A DNA stretch of 64,000 nt. It comes from an uncultured Solirubrobacterales bacterium. Its GTDB lineage: Bacteria > Actinomycetota > Thermoleophilia > Solirubrobacterales > 70-9. The stretch lies in NCBI GenBank assembly GCA_963695275.1, contig OY968772.1, forward strand, positions 1,627,267-1,691,266. The letters are read 5' to 3'. The position numbers were made by a program, and so were the translations under genes. Positions within the stretch are counted from its first letter, which is position 1; every line of letters starts with the position of its first letter. The notes beneath the pieces were generated by a model. It worked only from the letters and a program-made list of their open reading frames with translations. It was not told the DNA's origin and ran no database searches. This document shows, one piece after another, positions 28,855-42,062 of this stretch.

Positions 28855-30231
28855 TCAGAGCTTCTCGGCGTCGATGCGGCCGGAGTCGATCGCCGCCAGC
28901 AGCGCCGCGTGGTCGCGCTCGCTCTGGTCGGCGTAGCTCTCGGAGAACTCGGCGATCGCCCCGTCGAAGGCGTCGCTGGCACCGAGGTAGGCGGCGATCG
29001 CGATGCGGTCGCCGGAGCGGGCGTGGGCACGGGCCAGGGTCCAGCCGCACATGCGGCCGTAGATCTCCAGCCCGCGCGGGCTCAGCCGCTCGACTTCGAC
29101 CGAGAGCTTCCAGTCCCAGAGCTGGCGCAGGTAGAAATCGCGGTCGCGGCCGTCGAAGCCGACGGCGGGACACCAGCCGAGGAAGATGTCGCTGGCCGCC
29201 TGCATCAGCCGCTGCCCCTCGACCACCCGCCGGCCGTGATTGCGGTAGCGACTGGCACCGGCATAGGGCTCCAGGACCGAGGCCTCGGCCTCCTTCGCCT
29301 GCAGCACCAGCGGGTCGTCGTCGTCGCTGCCGGTCAGCAGCACAGCCCAGGCACGGGTGCCGACGCTGCCCACTCCGACCACCTTGCGGGCGATGTGGCG
29401 GAAGCGGTAGCCGTCGAGCAGATGCTGGCGGTCGGTCGGCAGAGTCTCCCGGTAGGCATCGAGCAGGTGCATGAAGGTCTCGCGCAGGTCGCGGCTCTCG
29501 CCCGCCGGCAGCAGCTCCTCGATCGGGACGATCAGCGGTGGCTGGCTGATGAACCGCAGCTCCCCATCGACCTCGTGCGTGAGCTTCCTCAGCGCTCGCA
29601 GGCTGTCCTTGGAGCGCGCCTTGGCAACGCCCTTTTGGACCCGCCCGACCGCCCGCGGGTCCTCCGCCTCGATCTCGCCCATCACCGCCTCGGTGTCGAG
29701 CCGGGCGTACCAGACTTCGAGGTTGCTCTGGGAGGCGAAGGCGCGCATCGTCTCGCGGTAGGAACGCGCCGCGCTCAGCACCGCGGCGGCGCGCTGCTTG
29801 CGCTTGAAGCCACTTTCGCGGCCGGCGATCGCGAAGCTGGCGGCGAGCCGCTTGACGTCCCACTCCCACGCCCCCGGCAGCGACTCGTCGAAATCGTTGA
29901 GGTCGAAGACGAGGCGGCGGTCGGGGGCGGCGAAGGCGCCGAAGTTGGAGAGATGGGCGTCACCGCAGGCCTGCACCCGCAGACCCGAGGCCGGCGTGGT
30001 CGCGAGGTCGGCGGCCATTACCGCGGCGGCGCCGCGGAAGAAGGCGAAGGGCGAGACCGACATCCGCCCGTAGCGAATCGGCACCAGCTCGGGAACGCGC
30101 GAGGTGGCCTGGCGCTCGAGGATTGCGACCGGGTCCTCACGATCGTCGGGCGGGGACCAGTCGGCGTGGGAGGTGCGGCGGGCGCTCGTGCGTGCGGCCC
30201 GACCCTGCTCTGCTCGTTCGCGAACGTCCAT
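28855..30231 (-). CDS. DUF2252-domain protein
   Basis: 'RYGRMSVSPFAFFRGAA..CGDAHLSNFG..FDLNDFDE' is the DUF2252 signature. Confidence 0.8.
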   Translation of the reverse strand: MDVRERAEQGRAARTSARRTSHADWSPPDDREDPVAILERQATSRVPELVPIRYGRMSVSPFAFFRGAAAVMAADLATTPASGLRVQACGDAHLSNFGAFAAPDRRLVFDLNDFDESLPGAWEWDVKRLAASFAIAGRESGFKRKQRAAAVLSAARSYRETMRAFASQSNLEVWYARLDTEAVMGEIEAEDPRAVGRVQKGVAKARSKDSLRALRKLTHEVDGELRFISQPPLIVPIEELLPAGESRDLRETFMHLLDAYRETLPTDRQHLLDGYRFRHIARKVVGVGSVGTRAWAVLLTGSDDDDPLVLQAKEAEASVLEPYAGASRYRNHGRRVVEGQRLMQAASDIFLGWCPAVGFDGRDRDFYLRQLWDWKLSVEVERLSPRGLEIYGRMCGWTLARAHARSGDRIAIAAYLGASDAFDGAIAEFSESYADQSERDHAALLAAIDSGRIDAEKL

Positions 30232-30301
30232 CCGCGCACCGTACCGCGACGGCGGGCCGATTCCCTCACCCGATCGGGAGGAAATCGGCCCGCCGGTTGA
30301 A

Positions 30302-31528
30302 TCAGACGGACGCGGGTGCCTGCTCCGCCTGGCTCTGCTCGGAGGCCTGGGCCTTGGCGTCCGGCGCCGGCACGTCAGCGGCCTGGCGCGGCAGCAGCAC
30401 TTCTTTGGCGATGACCAGGCGCTGAATCTGGCTGGTCCCCTCGTAGAGCTGCATGATCTTGGCGTCGCGCATCAGTTTCTCGACCGGGTACTCCTTGATG
30501 AAGCCGTAGCCGCCGTAAACCTGGACAGCGTCGGTGGTGACCTCCATCGCCGAGTCGGCGGCGAAGCGCTTGGCCATCGAGGAGATCTTGCTGTTGCGCA
30601 CGCCCTGGTCCAGCAGGAACGCCGAGTTCCAGGTCAGCAGGCGGCCCGCCTCGACCTTGGTCGCCATGTCGGCGATCATGAACTGGATCGCCTGGTGCAT
30701 CGCGATCGGAACGCCGAACTGGACCCTTTCTTTGGAGTAGTCGGTGGCGTACTCGAGCGCCGCGCGGCCGATGCCGACCGCCATCGCGGAGACGCCGGGA
30801 CGGGTGCGGTCGAGGGTCATCATCGCCAGCTTGAAGCCCTTGTGTTCCTCGCCGAGGAGGTTCTCGGCCGGGATCTCGACTTCGTCGAAGGAGATGGTCG
30901 CGGTGTTGGACGCCCGCTGCCCCATCTTGTCCTCCTTCTTGTCGACGGAGACCCCGGGGAGGTCGGCGTCGACGACGAAGGCGCTGATCCCACGGTGACC
31001 GCCCTCAGGGTCGGTCTTGGCGAAGACCGTGAAGTAGTCGGCGTAGGTGCCGTTGGTGATGAAGCACTTGGAGCCGCTGATGACGTACTTGTCGCCCTTC
31101 TTCACGGCCTTGGTCTTCATGCCCGAGACGTCGGAGCCGGCGTCCGGCTCGGTCAGGCAGAAAGAGGCCAGCTTTGGGCTTTCGCACAGCATCCCGAGGT
31201 ACTTCTTCTTCGTCTCCTCGGAGCCGCCGAGGGTGACCGGGGCTGAGGCGAGGCCGTTGGCGGCCAGCGAGGTGCCGATGCCGGAACAGCCCCAACCGAA
31301 CTCCTCCTCGATCAGGCAGCCGGAGAGATAGTCGAGGCCGGGACCGCCGTAGGCCTCGGGGATGTGGGTGTTCATCAACCCAACCTCCCAGGCCTTGTTG
31401 ATCACGTCCTGGGGCCAGCCGCCGTCCTTGTCGAGCTCCCAGGCGACGTTGCGCATGTCTTTCTCGGCGAAGCTGTGGGCCAGCTCCTGCAGGTCCTTCT
31501 GTTCATCGGTCAGGGTGAAGTCAACCAC
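30302..31528 (-). CDS. Acyl-CoA dehydrogenase
   Basis: ACAD N, middle and C domains: 'CLTEPDAGSD', 'ITNG' and 'YEGTSQIQRLVIAKE'. Confidence 0.95.
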   Translation of the reverse strand: MVDFTLTDEQKDLQELAHSFAEKDMRNVAWELDKDGGWPQDVINKAWEVGLMNTHIPEAYGGPGLDYLSGCLIEEEFGWGCSGIGTSLAANGLASAPVTLGGSEETKKKYLGMLCESPKLASFCLTEPDAGSDVSGMKTKAVKKGDKYVISGSKCFITNGTYADYFTVFAKTDPEGGHRGISAFVVDADLPGVSVDKKEDKMGQRASNTATISFDEVEIPAENLLGEEHKGFKLAMMTLDRTRPGVSAMAVGIGRAALEYATDYSKERVQFGVPIAMHQAIQFMIADMATKVEAGRLLTWNSAFLLDQGVRNSKISSMAKRFAADSAMEVTTDAVQVYGGYGFIKEYPVEKLMRDAKIMQLYEGTSQIQRLVIAKEVLLPRQAADVPAPDAKAQASEQSQAEQAPASV

Positions 31529-31599
31529 CGGTCGGGGCTCCTTTTAGTTGCTTGAAGACTTGCTCTGGAGCGCCGCCGCCGGGGCGAGCGTTCCGCCGA

Positions 31600-31615
31600 T
31601 TGACTGGTCAGTCAA
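31600..31615. promoter_or_regulatory. Inverted repeat TTGACTG-gt-CAGTCAA upstream of the acyl-CoA dehydrogenase gene; candidate operator
   Basis: Read directly. It lies 72 nt upstream of ATG 31528 in a divergent intergenic region. Confidence 0.4.
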
Positions 31616-31689
31616 CCAGGCCGAAGGTTAGCGAATGGACCCGCTTCCGTGGGCGGTTTACCCTTGTGATCGTGGATCTGCCGTTGGCC

Positions 31690-32154
31690 ATGTCCCCGAG
31701 CTCGCAGTGCCTGGTGGTGCTGCTCTTCACCGGCGTCGCGGCGCCGGTCGCAGGGATGCTCTTTCGCCACGTCTCCCGCGGCTGGGACTCAGTCGGCAAG
31801 GGCCCGTTCGCGATTGAGCAGCAGCTGCCGCTGGTGCCGCGTTACGTCTCCGGCCCGGCGCCGGCCGTCGATCCCGCGATCCAGGCCGCCGAGGTGCGGC
31901 AGATGCTGAAGGCCAAGCAGGAGCGCCAGCGCCGCCGCGGCGAGGCGCCGATCGACGTCGAGGTGGAGACGACACGGCTGTTGGCGCCCGAGGAGGCACC
32001 CAGCGCTGGCGCCCGCCAGGACGCTGAGCTGCGGGCCGAGGTGCGGCAACTGGTCGTCAGCCGCAACGAACGGCGGATGCGCAAGGGCCTCGATCCGCTC
32101 GATGTCGAGGCCGAGACCAAACGCCAACTCGAAGATTTCGTAGGATCGCCGTAA
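31690..32154 (+). CDS. Hypothetical protein, N-terminal TM plus charged coiled region
   Basis: ORF frame trimmed to ATG 31690 ('MSPSSQCLVVLLFTGVAAPVAGMLF'). Repeated 'RRRGEAPIDVEVET / MRKGLDPLDVEAET' units. Confidence 0.4.
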   Translation: MSPSSQCLVVLLFTGVAAPVAGMLFRHVSRGWDSVGKGPFAIEQQLPLVPRYVSGPAPAVDPAIQAAEVRQMLKAKQERQRRRGEAPIDVEVETTRLLAPEEAPSAGARQDAELRAEVRQLVVSRNERRMRKGLDPLDVEAETKRQLEDFVGSP

Positions 32155-32489
32155 TGGCCGGCGCCGAGGACAATCTCTACGAGGTCGAGCAGCTGCTGGT
32201 GCAGCCCGGCACCTACTTCAACCCCCAGACCGAGGTCGTGGTCGTCGTCGACGACTCCGCCTCGATCGACCAGGAGGTCTTCAACATGGAGGCCTACGAG
32301 GGAGCGGACTGGGTGCGGATCTCCGACGAGATCCCGATCGACGAGGACGGCCGTGACCGCGCCCTCGAGGCCTTCCAGACGCATTACCACCCCGGCTCGG
32401 CCGGGTCGGTCTCCGAAACCGCGCTCGAACAGGGCGACGAAGAGCTCGACGAAGGCGAGACCGGCCAGGACCCCGGCCGCGAGGACTAA
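32154..32489 (+). CDS. Hypothetical acidic protein
   Basis: ATG overlaps the upstream TAA (TAATG). No family recognised. Confidence 0.45.
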   Translation: MAGAEDNLYEVEQLLVQPGTYFNPQTEVVVVVDDSASIDQEVFNMEAYEGADWVRISDEIPIDEDGRDRALEAFQTHYHPGSAGSVSETALEQGDEELDEGETGQDPGRED

Positions 32490-32499
32490 GCGGCCACCG

Positions 32500-32967
32500 A
32501 TGCTGGAGCCAGGGGACAGAGCGCCCGCCTTCACGCTGTCCGACCAGGACGGCAACAAGGTCAAGCTGACCGACCTCAAGGGCGAGACGGTCGTCGTCTA
32601 CTTCTACCCGCGGGCAGAAACGCCGGGCTGTACGACTCAAGCCTGCGGCATCCGCGACCGCGGCGACGAGTACCGCGAGCTGGGCGCGCGGGTGCTGGGG
32701 ATCTCACCCGACGAGCCGGAGGCGCTGCGCAAGTTCGCCGACAACCAGAAGCTCGACTTCACCCTGCTCTCCGATCCCGATCACAAGGTCGCCGACAAAT
32801 ACGGCGCCTGGGGCGAGAAGTCGATGTACGGCAAGAAGTACATGGGAATGCTGAGATCAAGCTTCATCGTCGACCCCAAGGGCAAGATCGCCCGGGTCTT
32901 CCCCAAAGTCCAGCCCAAAAAACACAACGGGCTGATCCTCAAAGCACTCGCGGAACTCGCGGCCTGA
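32500..32967 (+). CDS. bcp: Peroxiredoxin Bcp (thiol peroxidase)
   Basis: 'GDRAPAFTL..VVVYFYPRAETPGCTTQACG'. Start trimmed to ATG 32500. Confidence 0.9.
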   Translation: MLEPGDRAPAFTLSDQDGNKVKLTDLKGETVVVYFYPRAETPGCTTQACGIRDRGDEYRELGARVLGISPDEPEALRKFADNQKLDFTLLSDPDHKVADKYGAWGEKSMYGKKYMGMLRSSFIVDPKGKIARVFPKVQPKKHNGLILKALAELAA

Positions 32968-32970
32968 GGG

Positions 32971-33036
32971 CGGGTCCCGGGTGGGACCCACCTGCGCGAA
33001 CTGCGGGGAGGCTTGGCGGGTCCCACCCGGGACCCG
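32971..33036. terminator. Twin-hairpin bidirectional terminator between convergent bcp and the antiporter gene
   Basis: GGGTCCC-gggt-GGGACCC (32972-32989) and CGGGTCCC-accc-GGGACCCG (33017-33036). The two units are reverse complements of each other. Confidence 0.6.
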
Positions 33037-33039
33037 TGT

Positions 33040-34044
33040 TCAAGCACCAGCTGCGACGACGATGATGAAGCTGGCGTAGAGGAGGAACCAGCCGATGACC
33101 GCTGGCAATTTGAAGCGGCGCGCTAGGTGGAGGCTCTCGTAGGCCAGCAGTCCTCCCGCCAAGCCGAGGCCGATTGAGAGGATCGCGTTGCCGCTGAGAT
33201 CCCAGTCGGTGAAGATCAGGCCGATCCCGACCGGGATCATCGACTGGAAGACCATCGCCCCAGTGATGTTGCCGAGCGCCAGCGCGTCCTTGCCTTCGCG
33301 CACCCAGAAGAAGCTGTTGACCTTCTCCGGCAGCTCGGTCGCCAGGGGCGCCAGGATCAGGGCCAGGACGAGGGCCTCGACGCCGATGCTGTCGGCGATC
33401 GTCAGCAGCTCTTCGACGAAGAGGTGGGCACCGCCAACCATTGCCCCGAGGCCGACAAGCAGCTGGATTACGCAGAGCGAGAGCGCCGGGTCTTCGCGGC
33501 GCTCGCCGCGGCGCTCGAAGATCAGCGGGTTCAGCGACTCCTCGCTCTGGACCTCGCCGCTGCCGCGCAGGGTGAGGCGGATGTAGAAGACGTAGGCGAC
33601 GAGGAAGCCGACCCCGACGGCGATGCGGACCGGCGCCGGCGGACCCCAGGAGAGCAGCCCCGCGAGGGTGAAGAGGACGAGGAAGAAGGTGAGGTCGCGC
33701 TCCAGGGTCGGCCTGTGCACGTCGAGCTGAACCCCCTGCTCGCGTTTGTGGCGGTAGAGGTAGGCGAAGAGCCCGACCAGGCCCATCGCCAGCGTCGCCA
33801 GCAGGAAGGGCGCGCCGACGATGGCGCCGATCGCGACGTCTTCGGAGCCGGCGTTGACGCTGAGCAGGGCGACGATCGCGATCAGCGTCTCCGGCATCGC
33901 CGTCCCGACCGCGGCCAGCAGGCTGCCGACCGCCCCCTCTCCCAGCTCCAGGTTGTGCCCGATCCACTCCACCGCATTGGTGAACAACAAAGCGCCGGCC
34001 AGCACCACGGCGAAGCTGAGCAGAAGCAGCAGGGCTTCTCCCAT
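33040..34044 (-). CDS. Na+/Ca2+ exchanger family protein (CaCA, YrbG-like)
   Basis: Two alpha-repeats, 'GTAMPETLIAIVA' and 'GNITGAMVFQSMIPVG', with about 10 TM segments. ATG 34044 overlaps the mazF stop (TGATG). Confidence 0.85.
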   Translation of the reverse strand: MGEALLLLLSFAVVLAGALLFTNAVEWIGHNLELGEGAVGSLLAAVGTAMPETLIAIVALLSVNAGSEDVAIGAIVGAPFLLATLAMGLVGLFAYLYRHKREQGVQLDVHRPTLERDLTFFLVLFTLAGLLSWGPPAPVRIAVGVGFLVAYVFYIRLTLRGSGEVQSEESLNPLIFERRGERREDPALSLCVIQLLVGLGAMVGGAHLFVEELLTIADSIGVEALVLALILAPLATELPEKVNSFFWVREGKDALALGNITGAMVFQSMIPVGIGLIFTDWDLSGNAILSIGLGLAGGLLAYESLHLARRFKLPAVIGWFLLYASFIIVVAAGA

Positions 34045-34349
34045 CAACTCAACCCGAGATCGAACGCGGCCGCGATCGCTTCACCGAGAGCCGGCTCCTG
34101 GCTCTCAAGCAGGAGGCCGATCTGCTCCCCTACGGCATCGGTGGGAATGGTGGTGATGTTGTCGCAACTGACGACCGAGGGCTCCGCGAGGCCGTTCATG
34201 GCATCGACGCCGACCTCGCTGGAGAGCCCGCGGATCGTCGTGGTGATCGGCGCTACGGTGACGGTCCTCAGATGCGGCCGTACGAGCTCACGCGTGAGGA
34301 CCAGCACAGGCCGCGCCTTGTCGAGCCGTGCGACGTGGATGGGCCGCAT
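34044..34349 (-). CDS. mazF: Type II toxin, MazF/PemK-family mRNA interferase
   Basis: 'RPVLVLTRE..VTVAPITTTIRGLSSEV..PSVVSCDNITTIP' is the PemK/MazF pattern. Confidence 0.85.
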   Translation of the reverse strand: MRPIHVARLDKARPVLVLTRELVRPHLRTVTVAPITTTIRGLSSEVGVDAMNGLAEPSVVSCDNITTIPTDAVGEQIGLLLESQEPALGEAIAAAFDLGLS

Positions 34350-34582
34350 CAGGCCAGATCACGCGGGAGGCCCGCCGCGTACTCGGCGAGCCCTGCGAGC
34401 TCCGGGTCCGGACCGGTCCGGGCGAGAATCCGGGCATCCCGTTCCGCGAGGGCACGCCGACGCTCCCGCTCGAGCGCCCGGGTCACGACAGCTGCGCGGC
34501 TGCGCTCGTTACCGGAGTCGACAATCTCGTCAACGAAGTCGACAAGCTCATCTGGGAGTCGGACGGCGATCTGCTTGCTCAT
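34349..34582 (-). CDS. Ribbon-helix-helix antitoxin (MazE/CopG-like)
   Basis: 'MSKQIAVRLPDELVDFVDEIV..RSRAAVVTRALE'. Its stop overlaps the mazF ATG (ATGA). It is the C-terminal part of listed ORF 34349..34894. Confidence 0.75.
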   Translation of the reverse strand: MSKQIAVRLPDELVDFVDEIVDSGNERSRAAVVTRALERERRRALAERDARILARTGPDPELAGLAEYAAGLPRDLA

Positions 34583-34629
34583 CCCATGATGGTAGCGAAA
34601 CGGTAGCACCCAAAGAGTAGGTTCAATCG

Positions 34630-35295
34630 ATGGATTGGACCGACGGGCTTCAGGTCTTCTGTGCCGACGTGGGGTCGATCGCGCGCGGCAGCTTCGCCTG
34701 GGCGCGACGAATCCCAGGTTCCAACGGTGAGAAACCCCAACGGCCGGAGAGCATCGAGTCGCTTGCGGATTCGGTTGTTCATGCCCTCCACAACGGCGAC
34801 CCGGTAGCTCTCGGCTTCGAGGCGCCGCTGTTCCTGCCAGTGCCGGAGGACCCGAATCGACTTGGAAAGGCGCGGCCCTGCGATGCCCCTTCACCGTCGT
34901 GGTCGAGCAGTGTCGGTGCGTCAGTCCTCGCGACGGCGATGGTACAGATCCCGTGGACCCTGCGGGTCATCCACGAACAGGTACCCGACCTTCGGGTACA
35001 CGTTCAGTGGCCACGGTTCGCCGAGCAACGGGAGGGGCTGCTTCTTTGGGAGGCATTCGTCAGCGGGGCGGCAAAGGGTGAGACGCACGAGGAGGATGCT
35101 CGCAGTGGAGTACAGGCATTCTGCGAGCAGCTGCCGAACCCTGGCGACCCCAGCGCCACAGAAACGGAAAGACCGTTCTCCGTATTGGCTGCTGCGGCGA
35201 TTTGGGCGGGGCTCGATCTACCAATTGAGGACACGCGCGGTGGATGTCTGCTTGTACGCGCGACTCACCCACCGGACCCTCTGGGAACAGAATGA
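34630..35295 (+). CDS. Hypothetical protein, possible RNase H-like/RuvC-like fold nuclease (very tentative)
   Basis: ORF in the lower-GC island. Spaced acidic blocks 'VFCADVGS', 'ALGFEAPLF' and 'LWEAF..HEEDA' suggest the fold, but no family was recognised with certainty. Confidence 0.45.
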   Translation: MDWTDGLQVFCADVGSIARGSFAWARRIPGSNGEKPQRPESIESLADSVVHALHNGDPVALGFEAPLFLPVPEDPNRLGKARPCDAPSPSWSSSVGASVLATAMVQIPWTLRVIHEQVPDLRVHVQWPRFAEQREGLLLWEAFVSGAAKGETHEEDARSGVQAFCEQLPNPGDPSATETERPFSVLAAAAIWAGLDLPIEDTRGGCLLVRATHPPDPLGTE

Positions 35296-35326
35296 TGTTT
35301 CTCGCGCAAAGCGGGAGAATGCTGCC

Positions 35327-35758
35327 ATGAGCGAAGGAGTTGACTCAACCCCGAACCCCTGGCGGATTCAGGTGCGTGAACACCCAGCGCGCCGCGATAG
35401 CTCCGAATGGAGGGATGCCATAGGGGCCGCGGTGGAGGCCGCCTATCCGCAGGCGCCGTTCACCTCGCCTCACCTGAAGGCCGCCAGGTTCACCGTCGAG
35501 GTGACCTTCTGGATGACTCCTTTGGACCTGGCGAGGCCGGCCGTCGACCTCGACAACTTCGTCAAGCCTGTCCTCGACACACTCTTCACCTCGCAGAACG
35601 TCCGGAGACTCACCGGGGTCCTTCTCCCCGACGTGAACGACACGCGGGTGTTCCGACTCCTCATCGAGAAGGACGAAGTAGATAGTCCCGAGGACCAGGG
35701 GGCGGATATCACCATCTCCTGGGACCCTGCGACCACCCCGGGTCTCAGCGCCCCCTGA
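35327..35758 (+). CDS. RusA-like Holliday-junction resolvase family protein
   Basis: 'VDLDNFVKPVLDTL' and 'NDTRVFRLLIEK' align with E. coli RusA 'RDLDNLQKAAFDAL' and 'DDAQVVDYRVVK' (quoted from memory). ATG 35327 lies within listed ORF 34862..35758. Confidence 0.6.
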   Translation: MSEGVDSTPNPWRIQVREHPARRDSSEWRDAIGAAVEAAYPQAPFTSPHLKAARFTVEVTFWMTPLDLARPAVDLDNFVKPVLDTLFTSQNVRRLTGVLLPDVNDTRVFRLLIEKDEVDSPEDQGADITISWDPATTPGLSAP

Positions 35759-35910
35759 CGCTCCTCGCGCAAAACAGCAACGGTGGACCGGTTCCCGCTT
35801 CGACCTCGAATCTTCGCCAACCACGCCCCATCTCGCCTCCCTTGATCCACCAGGCGCCTCCAAGGTTTCAAGGGTTGGCGAGCGCCGCGGATCAGAAGTA
35901 CCATCGAAGC

Positions 35911-36264
35911 ATGACTCCGCGCCAGTTCCGCATCGGGGGACTCGTCCTTTCCGCGGCCTTCGCCATCCTCGGCATCTGGGCACTCGCTGAAGCCAAATAC
36001 GGCACCGGCACGCTATGGCTCGTAATGAGCGTTGCGTGGGTGCTGCTCGACTTCTTCAGAAACAACACTCAGCGGGCGCAAGAGCGTCGGCGACAGCGAT
36101 TGGAGGCAAAGTACGCGTCACAACCGATCCCGGCGCAGCCGGACAACCTTCCCCGTTGGTTCAGCCCGGATAACCCGCCTGGTTGGTACTTGAATCCAGC
36201 CACCAACGAACCTGCCTACTGGTCTGAGATCGGCTGGCGGTCGAAGGAACCGAGCGCGACCTAA
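35911..36264 (+). CDS. 2-TM membrane protein with DUF2510-like C-terminal motif
   Basis: 'IGGLVLSAAFAILGIWAL' and 'LWLVMSVAWVLLDFF' are TM segments. 'PPGWYLNPATNEPAYWSEIGW' resembles the GWYxDP..RYWDGxxW motif. Confidence 0.5.
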   Translation: MTPRQFRIGGLVLSAAFAILGIWALAEAKYGTGTLWLVMSVAWVLLDFFRNNTQRAQERRRQRLEAKYASQPIPAQPDNLPRWFSPDNPPGWYLNPATNEPAYWSEIGWRSKEPSAT

Positions 36265-36430
36265 CCAGAATCGTTCATGAAGAGGGCGTCTACGACCGGC
36301 AGGTGACGCGCTCGAAAGTCGCGCAAAGTAGGGGCGCCGTCTCGGCCTTCAGTCTGAACCACGAACTGATTGGGCATCACGAGCATCTCCCCATTCGTCG
36401 CATCACGAAAGGCGTGAGCCTCTGGATCGA

Positions 36431-37648
36431 CTAGACGGTCACGTGATCGGGCAGTCCACGTTCGCCCAGAACGATTTCCGCCACGTACTCGGGTACCTCT
36501 GCATAGCGCTCGAACTGCATCGTGTAGCTGGCTCGTCCCTGAGTCGAGGAGCGAAGGTCGGTGGCGTAGCCAAACATTTCGCCCAGCGGGACGAAGGCCT
36601 GGACCGCGAGCGCGTTGCCGCGCTGGTCCTGGCCCTGGACTTTGCCGCGGCGTCGGGAGAGATCGCCGATGACGTCGCCGAGGAAGTCCTCGGGGGTGAC
36701 GACCTCGACTGCCATCACCGGCTCCAGCAGGACCGGGTTGGCCTTGCGAGCACCCTCCTGGATCGCCATCGAGCCGGCGATTTTGAAGGCCATCTCCGAA
36801 GAGTCGACATCGTGGTAGGAGCCATCGACGAGTTCGACTTTGACGTCGACCATCGGATAGCCGGCCTTGACGCCGTTTTCCAGTGCCTCCCGCATCCCCT
36901 GTTCAGCCGGGCCGATGAATTCGCCGGGGATGGTGCCGCCCTTGATTTTGTTGACGAACTCGAAGCCCTCACCGGGAGCCGGCTCGAGGTTGATGACGAC
37001 ATGGCCGAACTGGCCGCGACCGCCGGTCTGGCGGACGAAACGGGCGACGACCTTCTCGGTCCGCTTGCGGATCGTCTCGCGGTAGGCGACCTGCGGCTTG
37101 CCGACGTTGGCGTCGACTTTGAACTCGCGCAGCATGCGGTCGACGATCACCTCGAGGTGGAGCTCGCCCATGCCGTGGATCAGGGTCTGGCCCGTTTTCT
37201 CGTCGGATTCGATCCGGAAGGTCGGGTCCTCCTCGCCCAGGCGCTGCAGGGCATTGCCCATCTTCTCCTGGTCGGCTTTCGTTTTCGGCTCGATCGCGAC
37301 GGCGATCACGGTCTCGGGGAACTCTCTTTCGAATCGGTTCAGGACTGAACAAACCTGATTGCGGAGCGCCATCAGGTCGTCGTCGTCGATGATCGGCTCA
37401 CCAGACACGACCAACTCCACCGCATACTGCTCGTCCGCGGGACGAACTCTTAACAGCACTACGCCGGAAGGCTCGTCAACAATGAATCGGTGAGCGAGCG
37501 TGTACACGCCTAGTTGTTGAGTACCGTGGAACCGTAGTTCCAACTCTTGGCTCAAGGACTCGCGGAGCGGAGCGGTCAACGCCGCGGCCGAGAGTGGTTC
37601 CGTCCACATGACTTCCAGATGGCTCACGAGGCTTCCGCCGCCTGCCAT
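36431..37648 (-). CDS. GTPase-less EF-G paralogue: novel ~105-aa N-domain fused to EF-G domains III-IV-V
   Basis: Long blocks are near-identical to EF-G ('[12 protein letters not shown]', '[14 protein letters not shown]', '[14 protein letters not shown]', '[10 protein letters not shown]', '[16 protein letters not shown]', '[11 protein letters not shown]'). No P-loop, DxxG or NKxD. Start is ambiguous: ATG 37648, GTG 37627 (GTGA overlap) or ATG 37609. Confidence 0.8.
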
Positions 37649-38463
37649 TCGTTGAAAGACCACACCACCCAATCCGAAGCCCTGAAGTGGGAGGAGACGG
37701 GCTGTGCGCTGGATACGTCCGGAGGACCCTTGGACGGAAACACGGCGAGCGTGATGTCGCGGCCTATCAGATCGCCGATCCGGCATGAGAAAAAGAAGAC
37801 TCGTGGAACAGCACGCTCGACGAGGTCTTTCCGCGCAAAGTTGTAGGCGGGATGCTTGAAGCGCGCGTCCTCCGGCGCTTGCCCCAGGTCAGTGATGATC
37901 GTTACGCAGCGCTCGAAGATCGAATCGCTTGAAATCTGGACGTCAACGTCGCTCTCGTCAGGACTGACTCCCAGCTTGTGCATGCAATCAAACGGACGTT
38001 GCACCGGGAAGATCTCGTCCGTAACCCACTCGGTACGGAGCCGAGTGTCGATCGCATCGATCTCCCACCGTTCGGGAACATCCCCTCGAGCGCTGCGAAA
38101 GGCATCAATCCATTCATCCCTGGTACACGGAAGCGCCTTGTGGGGTCCTGAGAAAACACTAGCGGCGCTTCCCTGGATCCGTACATCGCAGTCGTTCGGA
38201 TCGACGTTGTCTTCGACCAACGCCTTTGCGAATTGAGTTTTGAACAGCTGATAGTCGGCAGGAGACATGCCGAGTGGTACTGCGCGCGACCGCCAGCCGC
38301 TAATCGCGTGTGGCTCGATCCGGAGGAACTTGATGTCGCGCTGGCGGAGTCCATAGCCGGAGGAGTCGCGAATCGGAGGGTCTAATACATTGTCTCCTTC
38401 ACCGGCCGACGTCTTAGTCTCCCCTTTGGTGGGCCCAGTCACAGGGATGCGGGCGCGGTCCAT
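37624..38463 (-). CDS. Hypothetical 279-aa protein, first gene of the EF-G-like operon (enzyme fold unresolved)
   Basis: Intact ORF in lower-GC DNA, preceded by 152 nt of non-coding sequence. It contains '[13 protein letters not shown]' and '[11 protein letters not shown]', but with spacing atypical for Pol-beta NTases. Confidence 0.6.
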
Positions 38464-38615
38464 GGTGCAGAAGCCATCCTAGCGTCTATGTATCGGATGG
38501 CGCAACGAAGCCTTGAACTCGTTAGGAGTGCGCCGAAATGGAGTATTCCCGCTTCCGCGTGAAAGCAGCAGCGAGACGAAATCTCCTCGGCGGCCCCGGT
38601 CCCGCCCCCCCTCAC

Positions 38616-39746
38616 TCACGCAAAGTAGAAAGCCAGCCCAAACACGAAGTAGATCGCCAGCAGCTGCACTCCCTCGAACCAGGTCGACTCTCCGTCTTGG
38701 GTCACTTGATTCGCGATCAGGATCGCCAGCAGGATCGCGCCGAGCTCGAAGCCGTTGAAGACGAGCGCCAACGGATAGGGGCCGAGGAAGAAGGAGGCGA
38801 GGACCAGGACCGGGGCGACGAAGAGGGCGACCTGGGCGCTGGAGCCGACGGCGATGTTGACCGCCAGGTCCATCTTGTCTTTCATCGCGACCAGGACCGC
38901 GACCCAGTGCTCGGCGGCATTGCCGACGATCGCGACGACGATGACGCCGATGAAGAACTCGGAGAGCCCGATCGAGTGCGAGGCCTCGGTGATCGAGCCG
39001 ACCAGCACCTCCGACATCACCCCGACCAGGACGCCGGCGATCGCCAGGGCGATGACCGAGGTCCGCGTCGACCAGCCCCAGCTGTCCTCGTCCTCGTACT
39101 CGGGGTTGAAGAGGTCGCGGTGGGTCTTGAGCGAGAAGAAGAGGCCGATCACGTAGGTGGCGATGAGGACGACGGCGACGGCCAGCGAGAGGTGCTCGAC
39201 GGTGCCGCCGTAGTGAATCGCCTCCGCCCCGGGCGCCGGCAGCCCCTTGCCCTCGACCAGCTCGAAGATCGCCGGCATGATCAGCGCCGCGGCCGCCAAC
39301 ATCAGCATCGAGGTCTGGATGCTGGCGCTGGTGCGGCTGAAGGTCTGTTTGTCGCGGCCGATGCCGCCGGCCAGCATCGCCGCCCCGAGCACGAGCAGGA
39401 TGTTGCCGATGATCGAGCCGACGATCGAGGCCTTGACCACCTCCTGCAGCCCCTGGCCGAGGGCGAAGAGGGCGATGATCAGCTCCGGCGCGTTGCCGAA
39501 GGTGACGTTGAGCAGGCCGCCGATGCCCGGCCCCGAGCGCGCCGCCAGCTCCTCGGTGGCGCGGCCCATCAGCGCCGCCGTGGGGACGATCCCCAGCGCC
39601 GAGGTGGCGAAGACGACCGTTGCCGGAGCGCCGACGATCTCGAGCACGACCGCGATCGGAATCAGCGGCGTCAGCAGATAGGGCCAGCCGAGCGGGGTGC
39701 GGAAGAACGACGCATCCAGCCGCGGCTGGCCTGAACTCGAGTTCAT
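38616..39746 (-). CDS. chaA: Ca2+/H+ antiporter (CaCA superfamily, ChaA/CAX type)
   Basis: Paired 'GNAPELIIALFA' and 'GNAAEHWVAVLVA' motifs with 11 TM segments. Confidence 0.9.
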   Translation of the reverse strand: MNSSSGQPRLDASFFRTPLGWPYLLTPLIPIAVVLEIVGAPATVVFATSALGIVPTAALMGRATEELAARSGPGIGGLLNVTFGNAPELIIALFALGQGLQEVVKASIVGSIIGNILLVLGAAMLAGGIGRDKQTFSRTSASIQTSMLMLAAAALIMPAIFELVEGKGLPAPGAEAIHYGGTVEHLSLAVAVVLIATYVIGLFFSLKTHRDLFNPEYEDEDSWGWSTRTSVIALAIAGVLVGVMSEVLVGSITEASHSIGLSEFFIGVIVVAIVGNAAEHWVAVLVAMKDKMDLAVNIAVGSSAQVALFVAPVLVLASFFLGPYPLALVFNGFELGAILLAILIANQVTQDGESTWFEGVQLLAIYFVFGLAFYFA

Positions 39747-40871
39747 CTACTGGATCATGCTCGCGCACTGCTGCAGGTCGGCGGGGGTTTCGGCGCTTTC
39801 GAGGCAGCTGCGATAGCCGGCTCCACCCGAGCCTTCAGAAGAGGAGCCACCGCCGGAGGAAGAGCCACTCCCCGAGGAAGAGTCGCCGATCACGCCTTCG
39901 AGCAGATTGCCGAGGCCTTCGCCGCTGCTGGCGCCTTCGAGCAGTTCGATCGGGTTGACGTCGAGCTTCTGGAACAGCCCCTGCAGCGGCTTGGCGCCGG
40001 AGGGGGCGGAGATGTCCTGTTCTTCGTTGACGCCACCGAGCGAGAGGTCGAAGTCGACTTCGACCTTTTCGCCGCTGGTGCCCTTCGGTTCGATCGTCAT
40101 TTCCGCCGCGAGCCTGCGGATGATGTTGTCGTCGCCGACGTAGACCTCGACCTGGGCCTTCTTGACGGCAGTCGTCAATTCGCCCTTGGCCTTTTCGAGT
40201 TCGCCGATCGGCAGCGGGCCAGCCGCTTCGAGCTGGCTGCTGCAGGCCGGGTTTTCGCTCAACTTGATGATCGCGTCGATCGCGGCACCGACGTTGAGGT
40301 CGCCGCTGATCTTGGTCGTGCTGGTGCCGTCGACATCAGCGCTGCCGTCGTTGCTCGAGTTGTCGACGAAGTCGCCGACCTTGAGGCCGGTCGCCGCTTC
40401 CTGGCAGGCACTGACGTCGGCCGGATTTTCTTCGGAGCCGCTGCCCTGCTGCTGAGCCTGTTCGAAGCCCGACTTGACGAAGCCGAAGGTGGTCGGGTCG
40501 ACTTCGTACTCGGTCCCTTCGTATTCGACGTAGGCGCGATCGGTGAGCAGCGTCAGGCCGCCTTCGAAATCGATGTTTTCGCCCTTCGCCGAGCCCTTGG
40601 CGCTGGCCGTCATCGCCAGCTGCGGCAGGTCTCCCTTGGTGCCGCTCTGGAACGGTCCGGAGAGGCTGACGTCGATGTCGCCGCCTTCGTCGCCTTCGGC
40701 CTTGATGCCGAGCGAGAGGTCGATGTCGCCGCTCGTCACGCCTTTGAGCGTGGCGTTGTCGATGACCGTCTGCGGGTCTTCACTGCTCTTGTCGCTGCCG
40801 CCGCAGGCGGCGAAAGCGGTCGCCAGCGCGGCAAGCGCGGCGAACAGCACGAAAATGCGGAAACGGCTCAA
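39747..40871 (-). CDS. Secreted lipoprotein, unknown function
   Basis: Lipobox 'ATAFAAC', a Ser/Gly-rich tail and C-terminal Cys residues. The stop abuts the chaA ATG with 0 nt spacing. Confidence 0.7.
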   Translation of the reverse strand: MSRFRIFVLFAALAALATAFAACGGSDKSSEDPQTVIDNATLKGVTSGDIDLSLGIKAEGDEGGDIDVSLSGPFQSGTKGDLPQLAMTASAKGSAKGENIDFEGGLTLLTDRAYVEYEGTEYEVDPTTFGFVKSGFEQAQQQGSGSEENPADVSACQEAATGLKVGDFVDNSSNDGSADVDGTSTTKISGDLNVGAAIDAIIKLSENPACSSQLEAAGPLPIGELEKAKGELTTAVKKAQVEVYVGDDNIIRRLAAEMTIEPKGTSGEKVEVDFDLSLGGVNEEQDISAPSGAKPLQGLFQKLDVNPIELLEGASSGEGLGNLLEGVIGDSSSGSGSSSGGGSSSEGSGGAGYRSCLESAETPADLQQCASMIQ

Positions 40872-40913
40872 GGGGGTGGCTCCTCCTGATCGAAGTCGGT
40901 CGAGTCAGCAATT

Positions 40914-41159
40914 CTAGGGAGGGCCGGCGTCCCCCCGCGATTCGTCGATCGGCGCTGGCCGGTTGTTCGTGGTCAGGTTCGCCGCCAGCGGGAAGAGCAG
41001 GGTGCCGAGGAAGATCAGGGCGACGCCGGCGATGACCATCGCCTTGACCCTGAATACGTGGCCGAGGATGCCGATCGCGAAGCCCGCCAGCATCAGCGCG
41101 ATGTAGGGGCCGGGGCTGTGCGGTAACAGGTCGGCGAGGGGCGGCGCGAGGTCGAGCAC
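40914..41159 (-). CDS. Small 2-TM membrane protein
   Basis: ORF with two hydrophobic helices. No family recognised. Confidence 0.4.
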   Translation of the reverse strand: MLDLAPPLADLLPHSPGPYIALMLAGFAIGILGHVFRVKAMVIAGVALIFLGTLLFPLAANLTTNNRPAPIDESRGDAGPP

Positions 41160-41182
41160 GGAGGCGGATTATCATCGCCCGC

Positions 41183-42061
41183 ATGGCCGAGAGCTCTGTG
41201 GCAGAGGTGAAGGAGGCGCTGGCGCGGGTCGGCTACCTCGCCGACGAGCCGGCGGCGCTGGTCTCCTACCTCGCTCAGGAGCTCGGCAAGCCGGTCCTGG
41301 TCGAGGGCCCGGCGGGGGTCGGCAAGACCGAGCTGGCCAAGGCACTCTCGCGCGCCACCGGCCGCGAGCTGGTGCGGCTGCAGTGCTACGAGGGGCTCGA
41401 CGAGGCGAAGGCGATGTACGAGTGGAACTACCGCAAGCAGCTGCTGCGGATCCAGGCCGGCGGCGAGGGCGGCTGGGACGACGTCCAGGAGGACATCTTC
41501 AGCAACGAGTTCCTGCTGACGCGGCCGCTGATGCAGGCGATCTCCAGCCCCGAGCCGGTGGTGCTGCTGATCGACGAGATCGACAAGACCGACCAGGAGT
41601 TCGAGGCGATGCTGCTGGAGCTGCTCTCCGACTTCCAGATCACGATCCCCGAGCTGGGCCAGGTCTCGGCGACGACGATGCCGATCGTCGTCCTCACCTC
41701 CAACGACTCGCGCGAGCTGACCGAGGCGCTGAAGCGGCGCTGCCTCTACCTCTGGCTCGATTATCCGGGTGCCGAGCGCGAGATGGAGATCGTCCGCCTG
41801 CACGTGCCGGAGCTGAGCGAGTCGGTGGCGCGGCGGCTGGTCGAGGTGATCGAGATGGTGCGCGCCCTCGACCTGAAGAAGCCGCCCTCGATCGCCGAGT
41901 CGATCGACTGGGCGCGGACGCTGCTGCTGATGGGCGCCGAGGACATCGACCGCGAGACCTTCGTCCAGTCGATGTCGATCATCGTCAAGCACCGCACCGA
42001 CATCGACCTCGTCGCCGAGCGCGTCGGCCTGAAACTGGCCGAGCGCAGCCCGGCCGGCTGA
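41183..42061 (+). CDS. MoxR-like AAA+ ATPase (CoxD/CbbQ-like)
   Basis: Walker A 'EGPAGVGKTELAKAL' and Walker B 'VLLIDEIDK', with size and pattern of the MoxR family. Confidence 0.9.
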   Translation: MAESSVAEVKEALARVGYLADEPAALVSYLAQELGKPVLVEGPAGVGKTELAKALSRATGRELVRLQCYEGLDEAKAMYEWNYRKQLLRIQAGGEGGWDDVQEDIFSNEFLLTRPLMQAISSPEPVVLLIDEIDKTDQEFEAMLLELLSDFQITIPELGQVSATTMPIVVLTSNDSRELTEALKRRCLYLWLDYPGAEREMEIVRLHVPELSESVARRLVEVIEMVRALDLKKPPSIAESIDWARTLLLMGAEDIDRETFVQSMSIIVKHRTDIDLVAERVGLKLAERSPAG

Positions 42062-42062
42062 G

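Follow-up and report, generated by a model that had tools for sequence, protein, structure and literature searches.

A cassette-built islet between two cation exchanger genes of an uncultured Solirubrobacterales bacterium, with a putative toxin/immunity module fused to part of a host elongation factor G copy

The 4-kb stretch between the chaA-like and yrbG-like exchanger genes of an uncultured Solirubrobacterales bacterium (GenBank GCA_963695275.1, contig OY968772.1) constitutes a small genomic islet, whose limits were placed at 34600-38615 in a first-pass annotation of the 64,000-nt region analysed (hereafter the window). Both flanking core genes code for exchangers of the CaCA superfamily, as that annotation had proposed, Na_Ca_ex domains being detected in the two products (Table 1). 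Adjoining yrbG is a mazEF pair, in which a gene for a PemK/MazF-fold toxin is preceded by a ribbon-helix-helix (RHH)/MazE antitoxin gene with an ATGA overlap, the arrangement of a type II toxin-antitoxin (TA) system. Between mazE and chaA lie three genes on the plus strand, orf221, orf143 and a gene encoding a 117-aa membrane protein, and two on the minus strand. The latter are orf279, encoding a candidate toxin, and a partner gene (36431-37627), the product of which joins an immunity-like N-terminal domain (N-domain) to domains III, IV and V of elongation factor G (EF-G).

Table 1. Features of the islet and its flanks in window coordinates, with the GC content at third codon positions (GC3)
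Feature	Coordinates	Strand	GC3	Evidence or remark
yrbG-like Na+/Ca2+ exchanger gene, left flank, core gene	33040..34044	-	0.91	Pfam Na_Ca_ex, E 4e-29
mazF, PemK/MazF toxin	34044..34349	-	0.82	Pfam PemK_toxin PF02452, E 6e-12; PHROG MazF-like
mazE-like RHH antitoxin	34349..34585	-	0.76	NCBIfam YlcI/YnfO N-terminal, E 2e-9, and MazE, E 2e-3; Pfam RHH_1, E 1e-3
Insertion proper, 4,002 bp	34606..38607	.		blastn against the mazEF-only state of L170
orf221, hypothetical protein	34630..35295	+	0.68	385 homologues, all unnamed
orf143 single-gene cassette	35302..35773	+	0.80 (orf143)	orf143 at 35327-35758; bounded by direct repeat TCGCGCAAAGCGG / TCGCGCAAAACAG
Membrane-gene cassette, 117-aa protein	35764..36342	+	0.74 (membrane gene)	gene at 35911-36264; repeat TCGCGCAAAGTAG at 36319
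EF-G domains III-IV-V, C-terminal part of fusion	36431..37330	-	0.84	Pfam EFG_III, EFG_IV and EFG_C, E 1e-29 to 5e-45
Immunity-like N-domain of fusion protein, ~100 aa	37331..37627	-	0.69	GTG start overlapping the orf279 stop (GTGA)
orf279, enzyme-like toxin candidate, unannotated family	37624..38463	-	0.68	homologous loci and invariant residues
Promoter-side region travelling with the module	38464..38573	-		shared by contigs L153 and L154 up to 38566 and 38573, then divergent
chaA/CAX-like Ca2+/H+ exchanger gene, right flank, core gene	38616..39746	-	0.94	Pfam Na_Ca_ex, E 3e-39

Presence/absence polymorphism among relatives with conserved, collinear flanks shows that the islet is a genomic island. 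Orthologues of chaA were located in 37 of 41 related genomes, and ~19 kb around 20 of these were compared. Within the genus, orthologues 83-99% identical to chaA occur in 22 of the 24 congeners searched, the remaining two yielding no match, and chaA and yrbG are adjacent, 23-134 bp apart, in all 17 congener loci. None of these 17 loci contains mazF, mazE, orf221, orf143, the membrane gene, the EF-G-like gene or orf279. In the closest relative, the ChaA of which is 99% identical, a 95-bp spacer containing a palindromic element separates the two exchanger genes, and homology with the window ends at the yrbG start codon (34045) and restarts at the chaA stop codon (38618). A further relative (L170, an ENA assembly) has the order chaA-mazE-mazF-yrbG, with mazEF alone at the site; its collinearity with the window extends across 30024-34605 and 38608-42062, two blocks between which the blastn alignment leaves only 9 nt. 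The site is thus recorded in three states, empty, with mazEF only and with mazEF plus the 4,002-bp insert, and nested insertions are therefore indicated. The proposal that foreign genes had entered between formerly contiguous exchanger genes is borne out, the predicted limits matching the inner insert almost to the base, and mazEF does adjoin that insert; rather than forming the original left border, however, mazEF is itself inserted relative to most congeners. In three other genera of the same order chaA is directly followed by a homologue of the 111-aa gene at 32154-32489, with neither yrbG nor bcp, and the 3' side of chaA has therefore long been variable.

Two features of the site may be added. 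At 34044-34046 the mazF stop codon overlaps the yrbG start codon (TGATG), by which the inserted TA pair is translationally stacked on the exchanger gene, while in L170 the gene calls leave a 57-nt gap between mazF and yrbG instead of this overlap. The empty chaA-yrbG spacers hold two distinct palindromic elements of ~60 nt, GAGTCCCGGGTGGGACTCGCC…GGCGAGTCCCACCCGGGACTC and CCTGGCAAGGACGCAGGGAGCG… (loci L021 (6128-6229), L022, L023 and L028; L027, L033 and L035), which resemble repetitive extragenic palindromic (REP) or miniature inverted-repeat transposable element (MITE)-type repeats.

The islet also stands apart in composition. The GC content over 34600-38615 is 61.9%, compared with 68.8% genome-wide, which corresponds to the 2.8th percentile of 4-kb windows (mean 68.9%, standard deviation 2.65%) and makes it one of 21 low-GC stretches in the 2.67-Mb genome, and its tetranucleotide distance from the genome falls within the top 3%. 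The deepest dip, 57-59% in 500-nt windows, is localised at 37250-38500. Hand counts of single lines (53-60%) had accordingly given the right direction in the first-pass annotation but overstated the size of the difference. Low GC alone is indecisive, the conserved lipoprotein gene at 39747-40871 also having a GC content of 64.7%, and GC3 is a cleaner separator of foreign and native genes when the values in Table 1 are set against those of the long open reading frames (ORFs) of the genome (0.893±0.06, first percentile 0.70). Because the GC, tetranucleotide and GC3 signals agree, a foreign origin of the islet is concluded, and the compositional signature of the region is not uniform. As stated in the first-pass annotation, mobility genes are missing: ARAGORN finds no tRNA gene in the whole window, and searches against Pfam, PADLOC, NCBIfam and PHROG find no integrase or transposase domain in any islet ORF. 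The only long-range repeat candidates flanking the islet, direct or inverted, are short pairs at chance level, and a promoter/terminator scan and Rfam returned nothing useful.

The insert is a mosaic of small cassettes, each of which is found near-identical in other genomic contexts, some of them resembling integrative and conjugative elements (ICEs). The orf221 family is confined to Solirubrobacterales-type metagenomes; orf221 has no match in Pfam, PADLOC, NCBIfam, PHROG or PDB sequences, and its homologues are likewise without a Pfam domain. The orf221 cassette (34617-35279) is 87% identical in L171, where it occupies another context beside a PIN toxin gene. The exact 143-aa product of orf143 is recorded on 13 contigs, its 90% cluster comprising 128 members, and the cassette DNA is 98.7-99.6% identical from 35299/35302 to 35773/35779, where the similarity stops, at eight loci in at least four other contexts. 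In the first of these it accompanies genes for a tyrosine integrase, an excisionase-like helix-turn-helix protein, a TrwC relaxase and an Ltp-like lipoprotein, in the second Fic and a second integrase; in the third it lies downstream of mraY beside an AbiTii gene, and in the fourth beside a DDE transposase gene. In every context the unit starts with TTTCGCGC(A/G)AAGCGGGAG and ends with CCTCGCGC(A/G)AAGC(A/G)G, forming a 13-nt direct repeat. A RusA-like function had been assigned to orf143, for which there are weak PHROG matches to RusA-like proteins (E 0.02-0.04) and a DLDN..K...D motif discerned by eye, but no match in Pfam (at E ≤ 0.01), PDB sequences or PADLOC.

The membrane-gene cassette occurs on its own in L166 and L167 (35764-36284, 89% identity), flanked there on either side by the same motif, and joined to orf143 in L163-L165 (98% identity over 35302-36342); a DUF2510-like identity of its product, suggested earlier, finds no hidden Markov model (HMM) support. 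The module formed by the EF-G fusion gene and orf279 recurs at 95-98% identity in two independent short-read assemblies with different upstream neighbours. In one of these (L153:1-183) it lies downstream of a small gene ending …GTVVWPGGADLAPDTLYARV…, the product of which, judged by eye, may be a DUF2442-type small protein, and proteins of this type are often TA-associated. In L163 (4567-4930), from another soil contig, the orf143 and membrane-gene pair is followed only by a 91-aa EFG_C remnant that is 90.6% identical, and the module is therefore seen eroding.

Contrary to the first-pass annotation, in which no obvious direct repeats were reported, a short direct repeat, TCGCGCRAAGCGG, is present at several cassette edges and joints. 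A 13-nt direct repeat, TCGCGC(A/G)AAGCGG, delimits single-gene cassettes at both ends, at 35302-35314, 35765-35777 and 36319-36331 as well as in L155-L162 and L166-L167, and one version of it, TTCGCGCGAA, is a perfect palindrome; it may represent the core site of a recombinase. The shorter motif CRCSCAAAR has six matches in the window, all on the plus strand inside 34607-38625 and five of them at or near cassette edges. A simple attL/attR model was rejected, since the motif copies do not coincide with the outer junctions but lie 1 and 9 nt away from them. Given the near-identical pieces elsewhere, the repeats at the joints and the lack of a recombinase of its own, the pieces of the islet have therefore moved in trans. 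Transfer of the cassettes would have depended on a recombinase encoded outside the islet or on recombination at the TCGCGCRAAGCGG repeats.

Homologues of orf279 are rare, amounting to 16 protein clusters, 36 genome loci and 40 metagenome loci, and do not extend beyond Actinomycetota. The family shares 26 invariant residues, including GS, HK, SDxDxQISSD, GPP (GPPD in the window) and SSHF..DW, with H108/K109 and D172/D174 among them, which suggests that orf279 encodes an enzyme. Its AlphaFold model (predicted local distance difference test (pLDDT) 85, predicted template modelling score 0.79) has a disordered 28-aa N-terminus and reaches a best E of 0.55 against PDB folds; a nucleotidyltransferase assignment was rejected, the TUT7/Tut1 nucleotidyltransferase rows attaining template modelling scores of only ~0.2. 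The family profile has no match in PDB sequences or Pfam, nor does orf279 in PADLOC, NCBIfam or PHROGs. In L054, L050 and L070, which derive from Micromonospora, Mycolicibacterium and a Micromonosporaceae metagenome-assembled genome (MAG), the orf279 domain constitutes the extreme C-terminus of proteins of 1284-2252 aa that carry an N-terminal WXG100_2 domain, a Gln_amidase ('papain-fold toxin 1' glutamine deamidase) domain and, in one case, a YwqJ deaminase domain. Each of these long proteins is directly followed by a partner gene of ~110 aa, and in type VII-secreted polymorphic toxins the gene after the toxin tip encodes immunity. On account of this type VII polymorphic-toxin architecture among its homologues, orf279 is interpreted as a putative toxin domain and its partner as the likely immunity protein, orf279 thus being presumably toxic and the N-domain its neutraliser.

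The partner gene is found directly downstream of orf279-family genes in most of the loci examined, a few being without a clear partner and others being truncated by contig ends. Where the spacing was checked, the partner start and the toxin stop share 4 nt at most loci and are no more than a few nt apart at the others. Free-standing partners of ~105-120 aa are encoded in Streptomyces, Micromonospora, Mycolicibacterium and others. The N-domain in the window is 33-37% identical to the N-termini of the partners at other orf279-family loci, and the fused N-domain aligns over its full length with the stand-alone ~110-aa partners (hhalign probability 92%, E 5e-7). It is modelled by AlphaFold2 with a pLDDT of 89 and a β-α-β-β-β-α layout; a fold search against the PDB gives a best E of 0.06, and there is no match in PADLOC, NCBIfam or PHROGs. 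At one Streptomyces locus the partner domain continues into a stretch (…EADGPIPGPYS…, possibly exonuclease-like) that Actinomadura encodes as an ORF of its own further downstream (L079:6696-7295 and L076:6938-7717), reflecting either a further fusion or a frameshift.

The EF-G part of the fusion corresponds to positions 400-686 of the 691 of TIGR00484, and neither the GTPase domain I (GTP_EFTU) nor domain II is detected in the fusion protein. It is 97% identical at the nucleotide level to the fusA gene of the same genome, which is located 155 kb away and is intact (706-aa open frame), whereas the best foreign fusA among 25 relatives is 94% identical. Over nt 130-830 of the EF-G part there are four differences from the own fusA (99.4% identity). 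In the first 100 nt the identity is 84% to this gene and 92% to the fusA of another congener, and the last 70 nt have no fusA match. The module copy in L154 has the same domain junction, which is therefore not an assembly artefact. When the two module copies are compared, the identity is 98.4% for orf279 and 96.3% for the N-domain but falls to 89.6% in the EF-G part (Fisher p 8e-7). That the slowest-evolving gene is the most diverged implies that each copy has been overwritten by the fusA of its own host.

A corresponding situation is seen in genome G041, where the partner is fused to full-length RNA polymerase alpha subunit (RpoA) with 96.5% DNA identity to the native rpoA, and the latter retains its normal rpsM-rpsK-rpsD-rpoA-rplQ context. 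Insertion of the module into native genes was accordingly rejected as the origin of the fusions, the rpoA of G041 being intact in its operon and the fusA of the present genome being intact as well. The ratios of nonsynonymous to synonymous substitution rates (dN/dS) between fused and native copies, 0.23 for EF-G and 0.28 for RpoA, derive from small counts and indicate that selection on the fused copies is relaxed but not neutral. In the Conexibacter MAG G042, contigs C7 and C8 (L122 and L124) both end within the first 369 nt of rpoA, as would be expected if fused and native rpoA copies had broken the assembly.

EF-G is one of several proteins to which the N-domain is fused. At other loci it is joined to polynucleotide phosphorylase (PNPase; L042 and L082), RpoA (L045 (= L086) and L046), S-adenosylmethionine synthetase (MetK; L084, an N-terminal signature read in the translation rather than by HMM), a Type ISP restriction-modification enzyme of 1287 aa (L048), a vWA domain (L083), a TPR domain (L118) and a multi-pass membrane domain (L043), and some further partners carry unidentified domains. 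An N-domain profile retrieves only 89 proteins among 1.84 billion cluster representatives, with the domain N-terminal in nearly all of them. Among the Pfam domains that follow it are ribosomal protein S2 (five clusters), RpoA, GGDEF, vWA, RES, LysM, TPR and others; this survey is biased, since a fusion that clusters with ordinary EF-G, RpoA or similar proteins is concealed among representatives at 50% identity. TIR and RES fusions were confirmed individually, and upstream of the TIR-fused partner lies a gene of the orf279 family (hhalign E 6e-62). In the toxin tree all the host-protein fusions found at loci (MetK, RpoA, PNPase and EF-G), together with vWA, fall into one clade (support 98/96), and several host proteins have therefore been recruited within a single module lineage. 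The module is sporadic, with the N-domain present in one of 401 genomes sampled from the class, and a literature search found no paper describing the orf279 family or such host-protein fusions.

A second variable spot is located one gene away from the islet, in the 32489-32500 region between the 111-aa gene (32154-32489) and bcp. Inserts of ~1.4 to 8 kb occur between bcp and the gene for the 111-aa acidic protein in L023, L028, L030, L031 and L033, and some of them carry partial bcp duplicates.

The stretch is probably, in combination, a horizontally acquired islet, a mosaic of cassettes and the carrier of a toxin/immunity module, a judgement that does not extend to the decoy role considered below. 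The mazEF pair would have entered first, followed by the 4.0-kb array of orf221, orf143, the small membrane protein gene and the two-gene toxin/immunity-like module between chaA and mazE. The functional core would be a conflict module consisting of the orf279 toxin domain and an overlapping cognate immunity or antitoxin gene, in this lineage with the putative immunity domain fused to a copy of host EF-G domains III-V, which gene conversion with the resident fusA keeps host-matched. The pair may act as a TA or abortive-infection unit, and the fused host copy could couple release of the toxin to the fate of the corresponding host protein, serving as bait for an invader or as a ribosome tether. 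The suggestion in the first-pass annotation of a defence islet fits the presence of MazEF and of the toxin/immunity-like pair, and the occurrence of the cassettes elsewhere in ICE-like or TA-rich contexts.

Several points weigh against this interpretation. The junctions of the islet with chaA and mazE are seen in this single-contig assembly only. The CRCSCAAAR motif was partly defined from the sites it is taken to mark, and its clustering is therefore only supportive; TCGCGCRAAG is not enriched genome-wide, its 12 copies falling within the range of shuffled-motif controls for TCGCGCAAAG. No detectable fold or family match exists for orf279, the designation as an enzyme deriving from invariant polar residues only, and PADLOC v2 has no match among known anti-phage defence systems for orf279 or the fusion protein, nor for orf221 and orf143. 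The 279-aa product of orf279 in the window is without a secretion domain, and the polymorphic-toxin evidence is accordingly drawn from homologues that are 32-40% identical. Repeats are, furthermore, expected to undergo gene conversion even if the EF-G copy has no function.

For the fusions to host proteins the favoured reading, put forward tentatively, is that the orf279/N-domain pair represents a new family of conflict modules with integrated decoys. A phage or rival-toxin factor that binds or modifies the host copy would thereby free the toxin. Phage takeover or anti-defence proteins are known to target RNA polymerase alpha, EF-G and MetK as well as restriction enzymes and the machinery of RNA decay. 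It is somewhat unlikely that the host copy is rather an address label, parking the toxin-immunity complex on the ribosome, RNA polymerase or degradosome for local action or state-controlled release. Of the five recruited host proteins, four belong to RNA-handling assemblies as subunits or ligands, and the copies, being ~96-97% identical to the native genes, should still fit their partners; their dN/dS values are <0.3. MetK, however, lies outside such machines, and the slot also takes TIR, RES, vWA, TPR and a restriction enzyme, none of which is an address.

The fusions could also be neutral chimeras arising from illegitimate recombination, the EF-G tail being functionless and the islet selfish TA cargo, which is considered unlikely. 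The EF-G piece is indeed a fragment limited to domains III-V, L163 retains just the EFG_C remnant, and intact frames prove little at 97% identity. The junction, however, lies exactly and in frame at the domain II/III boundary and is the same in an independent copy, the EF-G part of which has since diverged by 10%. RpoA, PNPase, MetK and S2 are, moreover, fused from about residue 1-5 via linkers, the S2 fusions fall into five clusters less than 50% identical to one another, and the dN/dS values of 0.23-0.28 argue likewise against neutrality.

Quite doubtful is the view that the module serves competition between bacteria rather than acting as a TA or defence unit inside the cell, in which case it would be an orphan toxin/immunity cassette and a spare part for a type VII polymorphic toxin. 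Homologous domains do end WXG100-type polymorphic toxins and are then followed by a small partner, but the genome is without a second orf279-like sequence with which such a cassette could recombine. In addition, orf279 possesses a start of its own as well as a conserved upstream region that moves along with the gene, and all ten members of the orf279 clade are stand-alone genes with fused partners. An assembly chimera of the long-read metagenome bin is very improbable as an explanation of the islet. The genome is a single contig of 94.8% completeness, a 700-nt near-identical fusA repeat is situated inside the islet and the outer junctions are seen here only, all of which would be compatible with misassembly; the insertion into a 40-nt spacer is, however, clean, both flanks are collinear with those of relatives, and the joints from orf143 through the membrane gene to the EF-G 3' end and between the EF-G fusion and orf279 are reproduced in independent assemblies. 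A decayed prophage, as had also been suggested, has next to nothing in its favour, since PHROG matches to a MazF-like moron and weak matches to RusA-like resolvases are the only phage-family signals in a stretch of 4 kb, the pieces of which are distributed separately and contain no capsid, tail, terminase, integrase, repressor, replication or other structural genes in Pfam and PHROG searches.

Type VII-exported WXG100/LXG polymorphic toxin/immunity pairs are reportedly treated by Zhang, Aravind et al. (2012). The present module is similar to these in that the orf279 domain occupies the C-terminal tip of homologues with WXG100_2 and Gln_amidase domains, with a gene of ~110 aa directly after it, and in being a polymorphic, swappable unit. 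It differs in that the toxin domain in the window stands alone without a trafficking domain and the immunity domain bears large C-terminal additions, and, unlike in the classic polymorphic toxins, neither orf279 nor the N-domain is represented in Pfam, NCBIfam or PADLOC. With type II TA systems, such as the neighbouring MazEF, it shares two overlapping genes for a protein toxin and a putative protein neutraliser, a sporadic distribution and mobility. The order is, however, toxin-first, and the neutraliser has no recognisable DNA-binding domain and is fused to host copies or effector domains.

The cassettes are in turn similar to those of integrons, being promoter-poor single-gene units with sharp ends that occur in many contexts and follow one another head to tail, each joint bearing a short repeated core. 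Unlike in integrons, there is no IntI nearby and no attC-like imperfect palindrome of 60-140 nt, the cores are 13-nt direct repeats with TCGCGCRAAGCGG rather than GTTRRRY, and one cassette is on the opposite strand.

In the Ronin system of E. coli, a small toxin is linked to a duplicate of a cellular complex that phages target, and binding of phage effectors to this duplicate leads to cell death; the decoy is a separate HsdMS complex (Silas et al., bioRxiv 10.1101/2023.04.06.535777). The Type ISP restriction-enzyme fusion in L048 is a direct parallel, but in the present module core gene-expression proteins are covalently fused to the immunity domain, and the module is known from sequence alone. 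Ronin is the only bacterial precedent reported for decoy immunity. The integrated decoys of plant nucleotide-binding leucine-rich repeat (NLR) receptors and the PrrC-EcoprrI guard pair equip an immune protein with a sensor, namely a domain of the host target that is incorporated into it or bound to it. The restriction-enzyme fusion also parallels PrrC-EcoprrI, although the resemblance to both is an analogy of design only, as the protein families and the kingdom differ.

As an island the locus is an ordinary small accessory islet, yet it is also a clean, layered hotspot filled by recombinase-less cassettes with repeat-marked joints. Its cargo appears to define an unannotated toxin family and the corresponding immunity domain, and the putative immunity protein of one clade has repeatedly recruited near-identical copies of core gene-expression proteins. 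If the tethering interpretation were true, the module would bring a toxin-antitoxin complex to ribosomes or RNA polymerase in an unusual manner. If the decoy interpretation were true, the covalent integration of decoys of essential host proteins would be a design new to bacteria and comparable to the integrated decoys of plant NLRs, and the list of recruited proteins would read out the host hubs that invaders attack in these bacteria.

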